Below are positions 1 through 5,360 of a DNA stretch of 5,360 nt, in pieces. The DNA is taken from assembly GCF_003334315.1 (NCBI RefSeq), contig NZ_QOWR01000095.1; one strand, written 5' to 3'. The stretch comes from Escherichia coli (lineage in GTDB: Bacteria > Pseudomonadota > Gammaproteobacteria > Enterobacterales > Enterobacteriaceae). The notes under the pieces are model-generated. The model was given only the letters and a program-made list of their open reading frames with translations. It was not told the origin of the DNA and ran no database searches. A program made the translations under genes and the position numbers. How positions within the stretch are numbered: position 1 is the stretch's first letter; each line of letters starts with the position of its first letter.

Positions 1-50
1 CCACGGGAATATCTGCGGCGGCGAACCAGTAATGGGTTAAGTGATAAAAA

Positions 51-293
51 GTGTATGGAAATATAGGGGCCAATCCAGAAGCCAATCTGATAGTTGATAA
101 TTTAATTACAGATAAGTTACCGCTGGAATTTTCTTCATGGGTCGCGAGAATGCGTACGCCAGAAGCGTTAGTAGACGCTATTCGCATTTACCAACAGAGC
201 GCATCGACAGAGGTGAGAACGTATTTTGCCTTGCAGAATGATGGCTTTTTCACCAGTGATATCATCATGGTAGATGCACATAAAGCGGCATAA
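51..293 (+). CDS. yafE: 3' portion of a putative SAM-dependent methyltransferase (YafE-like); only the last ~80 codons are open in this window, so it may be truncated or a pseudogene
   Basis: Open frame ends at TAA 291-293, convergent with mltD and followed by a shared hairpin terminator. Upstream the frame is closed by TGA 42-44 and TAA 45-47, and the other two forward frames also carry stops (TAA 38-40, TAG 64-66), so no frame is open across positions 1-66. The first in-frame start is GTG at 51. The symbol is assigned from synteny as I recall it (the gene convergent with mltD in E. coli K-12); the methyltransferase call is a weak inference from that identification, since the 80 residues contain no diagnostic motif. 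Confidence 0.45.
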   Translation: MYGNIGANPEANLIVDNLITDKLPLEFSSWVARMRTPEALVDAIRIYQQSASTEVRTYFALQNDGFFTSDIIMVDAHKAA

Positions 294-295
294 AT

Positions 296-330
296 AAAAA
301 AGGCACCGGGGGAATCGGTGCCTTTTTATT
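296..330. terminator. Bidirectional intrinsic terminator shared by convergent yafE and mltD
   Basis: Perfect inverted repeat GGCACCG (302-308) / CGGTGCC (316-322) with a 7-nt loop, flanked by an A-tract (296-301) and a T-tract (323-330). Either strand therefore reads as a GC stem followed by a U-run. It lies 3 nt after the yafE stop and about 11-19 nt from the mltD stop. Confidence 0.75.
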
Positions 331-340
331 ATCTGGTTTG

Positions 341-1699
341 TCAGGAATCTGGCATGTTGTTGTTTTTCACAAACAACGTCAGCTTATCGCCTGGTTGCAG
401 ATTCGCAGTGTCGCTGTTCCAGCGCATCACATCTTTGATGTTCACGCCGTGGCGTTTAGCAATGCTTGAAAGCGAATCGCCTTTGCGCACACGATACGTA
501 ATGCTATCGCTGTTGTTTGCCAGTCGCTGTGCGCTACTGCCTGCACCAATCGTCAAACTTTGGCCTGGCTTCAGCTTAGATCCGCGCAGTTTGTTCCACT
601 GCTGCAAATCTTTGGTGCTTACGCCGAGACGTGAAGCGATACTTGAAAGCGTGTCGCCAGAGCGTACGGTGTAAACACGGCTGTTAAGCGGCGTATTGTC
701 GGCAACCAGCGTCGACTGTACAGCAGCAATTTCGCCTGAAGCCAGAGATTCACGCAGTTGATCTGCATGCTTCTTTGGCACCATCACGTACTGCGGGCCA
801 CTTGCGCCCAGCGTGGAGCCTTTTACGCCAGCGTTGAATGTCTTCAGCTTGCTGACGGAAATCCCCGCCATATCTGCTACCTTCGCCATTTCAACCGGGC
901 TGCTCAGGTGCACACGCGCCAGAGCACGGCTTTCATCGGTCGTTGGCAGACGTACGCCATAACGCTTGCTGTTTTTGAGAATATCACTCAATGCCAGCAT
1001 TTTAGGCACGTACTGCTTCGTTTCCTGCGGCAACGGTAACGACCAGAAGTCCGTGGATTTCCCACGCGCTTTGTTGGTTTTAATTGCCTTCATGACCCGA
1101 CCTTCGCCGCTGTTATAAGCCGCTACGGTCAGAAGCCAGTCGCCGTCAAACATTTTGTTCAGACGCTGCATCATATTCAGCGCGGCAGTTGTTGAAGCAA
1201 CAACATCGCGACGCGCGTCATAATTGCGGGTCTGTTTCAAACCATAATTGCGCCCCGTGCTCGGAATGATCTGCCAGATGCCTGCGGCATTGGCGCCAGA
1301 CGTTGCGTGAGGATCAAAAGCGCTCTCCACTATGGGTAGTAGTACCAGTTCCATAGGCATGTTACGTTTTTTAACTTGCCCTGCTATCCAGTACATATAC
1401 GGCTCTGCCCGTAAAGTTACATCGTGGAGATAGCTCTTATTGCGTAAATATTTCTGTTTCTGTTCGCGAATCCGGTCATTTTCCGGAATTCCCATCTTTA
1501 GCTCGTCGCCAATGAAAGCCCACAAGTCACCATCTGGCGCGATAGACGTCCCATCGTCCATCCATCGTGCCTGACTTGTAAACTTTGCTGCTTCCCCTTG
1601 ACCAGCTGCAGAAAGGCTCTGTGCGTGCTGTTGAACGTTGCCGGTACTCTGGCAACCCACGAGCAGGACAGAGGCGAGTAATATCGCTTTTGCCTTCAT
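341..1699 (-). CDS. mltD: Membrane-bound lytic murein transglycosylase D (lipoprotein with a lytic transglycosylase domain and two C-terminal LysM repeats)
   Basis: 452-aa ORF. N-terminus MKAKAILLASVLLVGC has a signal peptide and LVGC lipobox. The lytic transglycosylase catalytic region is present (LPIVESAFDP ... AAYNSGEG). Two LysM-like repeats occur at the C-terminus (YTVRSGDTLSSIASRLGV..., YRVRKGDSLSSIAKRHGV...). Length and sequence match E. coli MltD as I recall it. Confidence 0.95.
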   Translation of the reverse strand: MKAKAILLASVLLVGCQSTGNVQQHAQSLSAAGQGEAAKFTSQARWMDDGTSIAPDGDLWAFIGDELKMGIPENDRIREQKQKYLRNKSYLHDVTLRAEPYMYWIAGQVKKRNMPMELVLLPIVESAFDPHATSGANAAGIWQIIPSTGRNYGLKQTRNYDARRDVVASTTAALNMMQRLNKMFDGDWLLTVAAYNSGEGRVMKAIKTNKARGKSTDFWSLPLPQETKQYVPKMLALSDILKNSKRYGVRLPTTDESRALARVHLSSPVEMAKVADMAGISVSKLKTFNAGVKGSTLGASGPQYVMVPKKHADQLRESLASGEIAAVQSTLVADNTPLNSRVYTVRSGDTLSSIASRLGVSTKDLQQWNKLRGSKLKPGQSLTIGAGSSAQRLANNSDSITYRVRKGDSLSSIAKRHGVNIKDVMRWNSDTANLQPGDKLTLFVKNNNMPDS

Positions 1700-1731
1700 G
1701 TGTGTGTCAATAGTTGCTTAAAAGACGACCG

Positions 1732-1760
1732 ATCATAACGGCGAACGGAGCCGATGACAA
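1732..1760 (-). promoter_or_regulatory. Candidate sigma70 promoter for mltD
   Basis: On the minus strand: -35 TTGTCA (plus coordinates 1755-1760), a 17-bp spacer, and -10 TATGAT (plus 1732-1737), about 30 nt upstream of the mltD ATG. It sits in the 71-bp gloB-mltD gap. Sequence match only. Confidence 0.35.
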
Positions 1761-1770
1761 GAAAGTTTTA

Positions 1771-2529
<759 letters not shown>

Positions 2530-2559
2530 TTACCTCTCAGTGTGAAACGGAAGGTTGTG

Positions 2560-3282
2560 ATGAAACCGGCAAGAGTCCCTCAAACTGTCGTGGCTCCTGA
2601 TTGCTGGGGCGATTTGCCCTGGGGAAAGCTTTATCGCAAGGCGCTGGAGCGCCAGCTCAACCCGTGGTTCACTAAAATGTATGGTTTTCATCTGCTTAAG
2701 ATTGGCAATTTAAGCGCAGAAATCAATTGCGAAGCGTGCGCGGTTTCTCATCAAGTGAATGTTTCTGCGCAAGGAATGCCCGTCCAGGTACAGGCGGACC
2801 CACTTCATCTTCCTTTTGCCGATAAATCCGTTGATGTTTGTCTACTGGCACATACATTGCCGTGGTGCACCGATCCGCATCGTTTATTGCGTGAAGCCGA
2901 TCGGGTATTGATTGATGATGGCTGGCTGGTCATTAGTGGCTTCAATCCCATCAGTTTTATGGGATTACGCAAACTTGTGCCGGTATTGCGCAAAACCTCG
3001 CCCTATAACAGCCGGATGTTTACTCTGATGCGGCAGCTGGACTGGCTCTCTTTGTTGAATTTTGAAGTGCTACACGCCAGCCGTTTCCACGTTCTCCCGT
3101 GGAACAAACACGGAGGAAAACTATTGAATGCGCATATTCCTGCGCTTGGTTGCTTACAACTTATTGTTGCCCGGAAACGGACTATTCCTTTAACGCTAAA
3201 TCCGATGAAACAGAGTAAAAACAAGCCACGAATTCGCCAGGCGGTTGGAGCCACCCGGCAATGTCGTAAACCACAGGCTTAA
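2560..3282 (+). CDS. yafS: Putative SAM-dependent methyltransferase YafS
   Basis: ORF in frame 1 ending at TAA 3280-3282. The preferred start is ATG 2560 (MKPARVP...), preceded by GGAAGG at 2549-2554 with a 5-nt spacer; this gives 240 aa. The track's upstream GTG at 2542 would add 6 residues but has no better RBS. The product call follows the usual annotation of this conserved gene; I did not verify motifs beyond a general methyltransferase-like composition. Confidence 0.85.
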
Positions 3283-3746
3283 ACTTCAACTTGGTAGCCT
3301 GTATCTTCCAGTGTGGGATTCATCGCCGCGGCACGAGCCAGTTCATCACAGCGTTCGTTTTCCGGGTGTCCGGCATGGCCTTTAACCCATTCCCATTTGA
3401 TTTGATGCTGCCCCAATGCAGCATCAAGACGTTGCCAGAGATCGACATTTTTTACTGGTTTTTTGTCTGCGGTTTTCCAGCCACGTTTTTTCCAGTTATG
3501 GATCCACTGGGTGATACCCTGGCGGACATACTGGCTGTCGGTACTCAAAATGACTTCGCAATGTTCTTTTAACGCCTCCAGCGCGACAATAGCGGCCATC
3601 AACTCCATACGGTTGTTGGTGGTGCGGGTGTAGCCAGCGCTAAAGGTTTTCTCGCGTCCGCGATAGCGTAAAATAGCGCCGTAACCCCCAGGTCCTGGAT
3701 TGCCCAGACACGAACCATCGGTGAAAATTTCTACCTGTTTAAGCAT
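3279..3746 (-). CDS. rnhA: Ribonuclease HI
   Basis: 155-aa product [21 protein letters not shown]...[21 protein letters not shown] with the RNase H carboxylate residues in their expected contexts ([25 protein letters not shown]). The start is ATG at 3744-3746 (minus strand) preceded by AGGAAG. The 192-aa ORF in the track is an in-frame upstream extension lacking an RBS. Confidence 0.95.
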
Positions 3747-3810
3747 CTCTGGTAGACTTCCTGTAATTGAATCGAACTGTAAAACGACAAGTCTGACATA
3801 AATGACCGCT
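3747..3810. promoter_or_regulatory. Divergent rnhA/dnaQ intergenic control region
   Basis: 64-bp AT-rich gap between back-to-back start codons (rnhA 3746 on minus, dnaQ 3811 on plus). It contains -35/-10-like hexamers (TTGAAT 3767-3772, ATAAAT 3798-3803), but I could not pair them into a confident promoter. Divergent overlapping promoters are established for this gene pair in E. coli. Confidence 0.5.
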
Positions 3811-4542
3811 ATGAGCACTGCAATTACACGCCAGATCGTTCTCGATACCGAAACCACCGGTATGAACCAGATTGGTGCGCACTATGAAGGCCACAAGATC
3901 ATTGAGATTGGTGCCGTTGAAGTGGTGAACCGTCGCCTGACGGGCAATAACTTCCATGTTTATCTCAAACCCGATCGGCTGGTGGATCCGGAAGCCTTTG
4001 GCGTACATGGTATTGCCGATGAATTTTTGCTCGATAAGCCCACGTTTGCCGAAGTAGCCGATGAGTTCATGGACTATATTCGCGGCGCGGAGTTGGTGAT
4101 CCATAACGCAGCGTTCGATATCGGCTTTATGGACTACGAGTTTTCGTTGCTTAAGCGCGATATTCCGAAGACCAATACTTTCTGTAAGGTCACCGATAGC
4201 CTTGCGGTGGCGAGGAAAATGTTTCCCGGTAAGCGCAACAGCCTCGATGCGTTATGTGCTCGCTACGAAATAGATAACAGTAAACGAACGCTGCACGGGG
4301 CATTACTCGATGCCCAGATCCTTGCGGAAGTTTATCTGGCGATGACCGGTGGTCAAACGTCGATGGCTTTTGCGATGGAAGGAGAGACACAACAGCAACA
4401 AGGTGAAGCAACAATTCAGCGCATTGTACGTCAGGCAAGTAAGTTACGCGTTGTTTTTGCGACAGATGAAGAGATTGCAGCTCATGAAGCCCGTCTCGAT
4501 CTGGTGCAGAAGAAAGGCGGAAGTTGCCTCTGGCGAGCATAA
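3811..4542 (+). CDS. dnaQ: DNA polymerase III epsilon subunit (3'-5' proofreading exonuclease)
   Basis: 243-aa product [17 protein letters not shown]... with the DEDDh exonuclease motifs (Exo I DTETTG, Exo II HNAAFD, Exo [17 protein letters not shown]) and the C-terminal QTSMAF beta-clamp-binding motif. An alternative in-frame ATG at 3802 would add 3 residues; 3811 corresponds to the canonical protein. Confidence 0.95.
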
Positions 4543-4617
4543 ATACCTGTGAAAGGCGCTAAAAATAGCGACTTGGGCGATTTTTGCAGCAAACGATTCA
4601 AAAGATGAGAAAAACCG

Positions 4618-4646
4618 TTGACGAAGGTCGAGGCAATCCGTAATAT
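4618..4646 (+). promoter_or_regulatory. sigma70 promoter of tRNA-Asp (aspV)
   Basis: -35 TTGACG (4618-4623), 17-bp spacer, -10 TAATAT (4641-4646), followed by a GC-rich discriminator TCGCCTCG (4647-4654) and preceded by an A-rich stretch (4600-4616) that could act as an UP element. The tRNA begins about 28 nt after the -10. This architecture is typical of stringently controlled stable-RNA promoters. Confidence 0.6.
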
Positions 4647-4674
4647 TCGCCTCGTTCCCAACGGAACACAACGC

Positions 4675-4751
4675 GGAGCGGTAGTTCAGTCGGTTAGAAT
4701 ACCTGCCTGTCACGCAGGGGGTCGCGGGTTCGAGTCCCGTCCGTTCCGCCA
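4675..4751 (+). tRNA. aspV: tRNA-Asp (anticodon GUC), 77 nt with encoded CCA
   Basis: GGAGCGGTAGTTCAGTCGGTTAGAATACCTGCCTGTCACGCAGGGGGTCGCGGGTTCGAGTCCCGTCCGTTCCGCCA. Acceptor stem GGAGCGG/CCGTTCC, GTC anticodon in a CCTGTCACG loop, and a T-arm GGTTCGAGTCC. The locus name comes from its position immediately downstream of dnaQ. Confidence 0.97.
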
Positions 4752-4781
4752 CTATTCACTCATGAAAATGAGTTCAGAGAG

Positions 4782-4811
4782 CCGCAAGATTTTTAATTTT
4801 GCGGTTTTTTT
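4782..4811 (+). terminator. Intrinsic terminator downstream of tRNA-Asp
   Basis: Stem CCGCAA (4782-4787) / TTGCGG (4799-4804) with an AT-rich loop, followed by a T7 run (4805-4811). Confidence 0.6.
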
Positions 4812-4907
4812 GTATTTGAATTCCACCATTTCTCTGTTCAATGATTTTACTCTGGCGTAGGTGCGTGATTCTCGCTTGTTGTCTCATTCATTAAAATTCA
4901 ATAATGA

Positions 4908-4930
4908 GGTAATGACTCCAACTTATTGAT
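4908..4930. repeat. IS1 terminal inverted repeat (right end)
   Basis: GGTAATGACTCCAACTTATTGAT at the element boundary, the characteristic ~23-bp IS1 end. The partner repeat lies outside the window. Confidence 0.85.
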
Positions 4931-5360
4931 AGTGTTTTATGTTCAGATAATGCCCGATGACTTTGTCATGCAGCTCCACCGATTTTGAGAACGACAGCGA
5001 CTTCCGTCCCAGCCGTGCCAGGTGCTGCCTCAGATTCAGGTTATGCCGCTCAATTCGCTGCGTATATCGCTTGCTGATTACGTGCAGCTTTCCCTTCAGG
5101 CGGGATTCATACAGCGGCCAGCCATCCGTCATCCATATCACCACGTCAAAGGGTGACAGCAGGCTCATAAGACGCCCCAGCGTCGCCATAGTGCGTTCAC
5201 CGAATACGTGCGCAACAACCGTCTTCCGGAGACTGTCATACGCGTAAAACAGCCAGCGCTGGCGCGATTTAGCCCCGACATAGCCCCACTGTTCGTCCAT
5301 TTCCGCGCAGACGATGACGTCACTGCCCGGCTGTATGCGCGAGGTTACCGACTGCGGCCT
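4923..5360 (-). CDS. insB: IS1 transposase InsB (ORF B of the InsAB' frameshift fusion), 5'-truncated by the window edge
   Basis: The minus-strand frame is open from the window end (5360) to TAA at 4923-4925 and encodes ...[145 protein letters not shown]. The track's 125-aa ORF (4923-5300) starts at an internal Met. Confidence 0.93.

Follow-up and report, generated by a model that had tools for sequence, protein, structure and literature searches.

Insertion sequences (ISs) of the IS2 group, in the IS3 family, make a DDE (rve) transposase from two consecutive genes, orfA and orfB, through programmed −1 frameshifting, and IS2 duplicates 5 bp of its target site. Class I SAM-dependent methyltransferases have a Rossmann-like core with a glycine-rich SAM-binding motif I (VLDxGxGxG) and then an acidic motif. 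In the DNA analysed here the two meet, because the right end of an IS2-group element abuts the 3' part of yafE, a gene annotated as such a methyltransferase. The window is the entire contig QOWR01000095.1 (GCA_003334315.1), reversed, 5,360 bp in length and filed as Escherichia coli; beyond the yafE fragment it contains mltD, gloB, yafS, rnhA, dnaQ, a tRNA-Asp gene and part of an IS1 (Table 1). With a probability of roughly 0.92, we attribute the state of yafE to simple transposition of a 1,331-bp IS2-group (IS3-family, ISEc27/ISEc36-like) element that split the gene. The mechanism is ordinary, already-known biology: an IS2 relative interrupting a non-essential gene is a textbook case.

Translation of bases 1–300 confirmed the pattern from which an earlier note on this DNA had started. 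Between bases 30 and 66 a stop closes each of the three forward frames: the first is TAG 64–66 in frame 1 and TAA 38–40 in frame 2, and frame 3 has TAA 30–32, TGA 42–44 and TAA 45–47, followed only by TAA 291–293. The frame that closes at TAA 291–293, that of yafE, is therefore open from base 48 only, and 0 of 3 forward frames run uninterrupted across the window start. That note overlooked that the similarity to yafE ends abruptly at base 78 and that bases 1–77 are a different entity. The stops at 30–66 are seen because bases 1–77 are the normal sequence of an IS end; they are not lesions in yafE.

Table 1. Features of the 5,360-bp window, with positions counted from its first base.
Feature	Position	Strand	Basis
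IS right end, last 77 bases with terminal imperfect inverted repeat	1..77	+	100% identity to ISEc27/ISEc36-annotated records
OrfB C-terminal 21 codons (PREYLRRRTSNGLSDKKCMEI) and TAG stop	1..66	+	Frame-1 translation equals the end of frame 1 in a complete IS copy
Mechanical hybrid ORF of 80 aa from GTG, in which the yafE remnant follows in frame on 9 IS-derived codons (MYGNIGANP)	51..293	+	ORF list
Right copy of the 5-bp target-site duplication GAAGC (yafE nt 409–413, K-12-type numbering)	78..82	+	Junction alignment
yafE 3' fragment, codons 137–207 of the 207-aa K-12-type allele (residues 186–256 of the 256-aa allele), and TAA 291–293	78..293	+	Match to K-12 DH10B yafE
G+C-rich hairpin, 12-pair stem, flanked by A-run and T-run, between convergent yafE and mltD	297..327	reported on −	Terminator-like scan
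mltD	341..1699	−	
gloB	1771..2526	−	
dnaQ, mechanical ORF of 246 aa from ATG 3802	3802..4542		ORF list
dnaQ, most gene calls, 243 aa from ATG 3811	3811..4542		Gene calls
tRNA-Asp	4675..4751		
IS1 (IS1A-like), partial	4908..5360	−	K-12-like homology ends at 4907; PF03400 (DDE_Tnp_IS1) on the deposited contig (L018) 1–438

The insertion-sequence end at bases 1–77

A sensitive search with bases 1–77 alone returned 22 E. coli records annotated 'IS3-like element ISEc27/ISEc36 family transposase', each at 100% identity over the full 77 bases, and a megablast of window 1–340 against 5,426 complete E. coli genomes placed the same bases in a region annotated 'IS3 family transposase'. A further 6,120 records from E. 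coli genomes matched at 80–90% identity. These weaker matches, found in most E. coli genomes, are presumably canonical IS2, from which the present element differs to just that degree in its 77-base end; it is a diverged member of the IS2 group and not IS2 proper. Over the range of 60–100% identity the end occurs at 20,075 places in 4,448 genomes, on both chromosomes and plasmids, with a related 77-base end counted in 4,412 genomes. The element is thus mobile by the criterion of multiple copies in unrelated contexts, which include the topoisomerase III gene of an mcr-1 plasmid, a position beside IS66 genes and another beside yehD.

The terminus of the element can be placed to the base. Copies in four unrelated flanks (L002, L003/L004, L005 and the window) are identical or nearly identical up to ...CCAATCCA and ...GGGGCCAATCCA, and they diverge directly after base 77, which makes it the element's final base. 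The RefSeq transposase coding sequences in L003, L004 and L005 end at the base that matches window base 66 (locus position 1666). The intact plasmid copy in L005, which RefSeq labels 'programmed frameshift', is 1,331 bp long and flanked by the 5-bp direct repeat ATTCT. The full copies in four contigs from relatives (L025–L028, described below) are also 1,331 bp each, and the relatives' copy differs from the plasmid ISEc36 copy at 7 of 1,331 positions.

These full copies in the relatives show the organization of the IS2 group. OrfA (121 aa, PF01527) scores 265 bits against a cutoff of 229 for the NCBIfam family 'IS2 repressor TnpA', and OrfB, which carries the Pfam rve domain PF00665 together with PF13276 and PF13683, scores 200.7 bits against a cutoff of 160 for 'IS3 family transposase', giving a two-ORF rve transposase. 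The terminal inverted repeats are imperfect: the left end, TAGACTGGCCCC..., is visibly related to the reverse complement of the right end, TGGATTGGCCCC..., and the right end finishes in ...CA. In length, in its two ORFs, in an OrfB stop that lies inside the right terminal repeat, in its imperfect terminal repeats and in a 5-bp target duplication, the element resembles IS2, and specifically the relatives that RefSeq names as ISEc27/ISEc36 type. The window itself holds the terminal 77 bases, including the last 21 OrfB codons, and we infer that the copy in the source strain is complete.

The yafE remnant at bases 78–293

Bases 78–293 match genes annotated as yafE or class I SAM-dependent methyltransferase at 97–99.3% identity in 5,425 of 5,426 complete E. 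coli genomes (megablast). They also lie in the conserved place of yafE, directly upstream of, and convergent with, mltD and, in relatives, downstream of yafD, so the earlier assignment of the 3' part to yafE holds by both sequence and position. The difference from yafE elsewhere in E. coli is that only the last 71 codons are present. Window bases 78 to 120 are an exact match to yafE of K-12 DH10B from nt 409, with which codon 137 of the 207-aa protein begins; immediately before the shared GAAGCCAATCTG, K-12 DH10B reads ...GTTAATCAAT and the window ...GGGGCCAATCCA. Among the 5,426 complete E. coli genomes, none covered at least 80% of window 1–340 (megablast), the yafE match running only from base 72 or 78 onward. 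In some megablast rows the match begins at base 72, but the extra bases align by chance and with a gap (AATCCA against AATCAAT); without gaps, and in the other strains, it begins at 78.

Because the 71 remaining codons fall outside the methyltransferase core, yafE is, as judged from its sequence, a pseudogene here. The fragment (residues 186–256 of the 256-aa protein) follows the Pfam methyltransferase core (residues 49–145) without overlap and includes neither motif I (VLDMGCGAG, around residues 48–56) nor the Rossmann-like core of a functional methyltransferase; no NCBIfam family was detectable in the 71 residues. It is not a point-mutation pseudogene, given that homology to the intact gene stops at base 78 with an IS upstream. 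The earlier view of a disrupted, strain- or lineage-specific yafE remnant to which IS activity is relevant is thus supported, with the gene split by the IS. Downstream of the remnant, the terminator-like hairpin between yafE and mltD can probably serve both strands as a shared bidirectional terminator.

The earlier note had also entertained a short GTG-initiated remnant. Such a frame exists, as a mechanical hybrid of IS and yafE codons (Table 1), but it comes without a recognisable promoter: there was no sigma-70-like promoter on the + strand in window 1–400 or in the last 400 bases of the IS, and an A-run stands upstream of the GTG instead of a recognisable ribosome-binding site. An exact look-up across 153 billion gene positions did not return the 80-aa product, and contig QOWR01000095.1 has no gene call at the hybrid ORF. 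It is probably not a gene. OrfB ends frame 1 at base 66, and there is therefore no transposase–YafE fusion. The 3' yafE fragment is probably neither expressed nor functional; that the hybrid ORF (GTG 51 to TAA 293) is transcribed by read-through from the IS into a stable, active C-terminal YafE peptide, or that the insertion was selected in this lineage, we regard as highly improbable.

The gene that was struck was not the longest form of yafE. A comparison of L001 1100–1723 (K-12 DH10B) with L016 946–1716 (ABU 83972) showed that the K-12-type yafE (207 aa, WP_000016007.1) differs from the 256-aa allele of many strains (for instance WP_000211716.1 of ABU 83972) by a 221-bp deletion; SAM-binding motif I (VLDMGCGAGHAS) and the native start codon are lost with it, and the K-12 ORF starts instead at an ATG in the former yafD–yafE spacer. 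PGAP calls the K-12-type allele 'missing N-terminus' in strain TP10-2 and an intact coding sequence in others. The K-12 gene, which the earlier note had named as the intact reference, has therefore lost its own N-terminus to a deletion. The K-12-type allele is also that of the window's lineage, because the 142-aa product of its left junction (see below) begins MSGLPQGRPTF, and the IS probably struck a yafE that was already impaired. Around the yafE 5' fragment, a 90% cluster has 243 members, many of them fragments of 90–200 aa from E. coli and Shigella, a picture that fits a dispensable, often degraded gene.

Junctions, target duplication and rival explanations

An insertion that duplicated GAAGC would be predicted to leave a left junction reading ...AAT GAA GC followed by T AGA CTG GCC CCC TGA, which encodes YafE residues 1–136, then EA and then RLAP before the stop, 142 aa in all. 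This prediction was borne out: five read-set assemblies, SRR1122540 and SRR25039417 to -420, all of them Logan assemblies, contain exactly this 142-aa protein, and an exact-protein look-up did not find it for the three NCBI assemblies. In contigs L024–L028 the left junction runs from ...TTAATCAATGAAGC directly into TAGACTGG..., and in the window the right junction runs from ...CCAATCCA directly into GAAGCCAATCTG...; uninterrupted K-12 has a single GAAGC at the insertion site. The 5-bp duplication thus has its left side in L024–L028 and its right side in the window, the left one being seen in relatives and not in the source assembly. With GAAGC on both flanks, the event has the hallmark of a simple insertion rather than of a deletion or an inversion.

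The order in L025–L028 (Logan contigs from SRR25039417 to -420) is yafD, yafE nt 1–413 ending in GAAGC, and then the entire 1,331-bp IS. L024 stops 29 bases into the IS. L025–L027 extend one base beyond the element, to a G that corresponds to window base 78; L028 goes no further than the last base of the IS. No single contig covers both junctions: L025–L028 cross the element in full and break off at its right end or at the first base beyond. This suggests that those genomes repeat the k-mers of the right end without repeating the complete element, as truncated copies of the kind in L003/L004 would do.

On this reading, the K-12-type allele received the IS after nt 408; element and gene point the same way, and the 5-bp target GAAGC was duplicated. 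The assembler would have left the repeat unresolved, so that the contig starts 77 bases inside the right end of the IS. Bases 1–77 are the OrfB tail with its stop at 64–66 and the terminal repeat, hence the stops in the yafE frame, and bases 78–293 are the orphaned last 71 codons of yafE. The left junction of the source assembly would read ...TTAATCAATGAAGCTAGACTGGCCCC.

The explanation offered earlier, a frameshift or nonsense lesion in an otherwise colinear yafE, and its variant with a sequencing or assembly error in bases 25–70 draw on the stops in all three frames at 30–66 and on the many truncated yafE fragments in E. coli and Shigella. A lesion fails at base 78, upstream of which there is no colinear yafE homology; K-12 and the window have different sequences (...GTTAATCAAT and ...GGGGCCAATCCA) before the common GAAGCC. 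As for an error in bases 25–70, bases 1–77 are exact IS sequence, and the independent assembly GCA_002190225.1 (L019) has the same junction, which is therefore reproducible and not a sequencing error. We consider a lesion or error of this kind practically out of the question. A chimeric assembly artefact, in which a graph overlap wrongly joined the IS end to yafE while the real gene is intact, would be in keeping with the length of the IS part, 77 bases exactly, which is a common choice of k for de Bruijn graphs; contigs of this kind may end in repeat k-mers. Against it, three independently made NCBI assemblies break at or show the same junction, the complementary left junction was assembled from five separate read sets, and an intact yafE would have let the contig run on into yafD, as it does in L017; an artefact is very unlikely indeed.

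More weight, although still little, belongs to an IS-mediated deletion or inversion, or recombination between IS copies, that would leave the 5' part of yafE missing or elsewhere in the source genome. The window has the right junction only, an IS lies at both contig ends, and the 142-aa left-junction protein is recorded in the Logan assemblies but was not found for the three NCBI ones. By contrast, relatives that share the GloB allele carry the complementary left junction with a matching GAAGC, contiguous with yafD and a full-length IS, and a matching duplication on both flanks is the signature of a simple insertion. A rearrangement of this type is accordingly improbable. The left junction of GCA_003334315.1 is probably the same as that in the relatives, and, as it is known from relatives sharing the GloB allele, a rearrangement specific to this isolate keeps a small residual probability.

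Contig boundaries, lineage and annotation

Both ends of the contig are repeats, the IS2-group end on one side and IS1 on the other. As the window is the whole contig, the record has no DNA upstream of base 1, where the earlier note had looked for 400–500 bp to align. The IS overhang of exactly 77 bases fits a de Bruijn graph overlap with k = 77, and we infer that this is how the contig came to break there. GCA_002190225.1 (L019) has identical IS/yafE and IS1 junctions, starting 19 bases inside the IS end and ending 20 bases inside IS1, and GCA_012531215.1 (L020) breaks at window positions 80 and 4904, within 2–3 bases of both junctions. The locus thereby resembles other IS-bounded short-read draft contigs, with a 4.8-kb unique segment, a partial IS at both ends and sister assemblies that break at the same junctions, and we saw nothing unusual that would set it apart. 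The partial IS1 begins 156 bases downstream of tRNA-Asp (aspV) and reaches the contig end. A search for this IS1/aspV junction found an IS1 near aspV in 78 complete E. coli genomes. The best matches among them had to be joined from two pieces and covered a longer stretch than the query, and thus did not show the identical junction; L015 has an IS1 nearby at a different position.

The unique segment is that of an ordinary E. coli. K-12-like E. coli chromosomes, among them those of strains TP10-2 and 98223, share about 99.9% identity with bases 78–4907, and NCBI files the proteins of the contig, including its GloB allele, as Escherichia coli; the Shigella-like genome that the earlier note had proposed thus finds no evidence here. 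Tens of thousands of contigs encode an MltD identical to that of the window, and the ten loci returned through this protein were all ordinary E. coli, with both 256-aa and 207-aa yafE alleles among them. The window's GloB, by contrast, is a rare allele: it is recorded in only 8 contigs and differs from the alleles in all ten of those loci. This allele occurs together with the left-junction protein in SRR25039417, -418 and -420; SRR9075510 has the same rare allele, but with an uninterrupted K-12-type yafE. The dnaQ calls vary between assemblies, at 243 or 246 aa. A literature search on the accessions QOWR, LYBE, GCA_003334315, SRR25039417 and SRR1122540 found no papers.

For annotation, the best label for bases 78–293 is a pseudogene fragment of yafE, interrupted by an IS2-group element, and for bases 1–77 a partial mobile element; 'short methyltransferase gene' and 'frameshift' are labels to avoid for 78–293. 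The case also illustrates a trap in draft contigs, in which a frame that closes near a contig end often means that the contig has reached a repeat. Combined with the rare GloB allele, the IS insertion can be used to mark the lineage of a small group of E. coli isolates. Finally, the yafE of K-12, the common reference, itself lacks motif I, which is consistent with yafE being a dispensable and often degraded gene.
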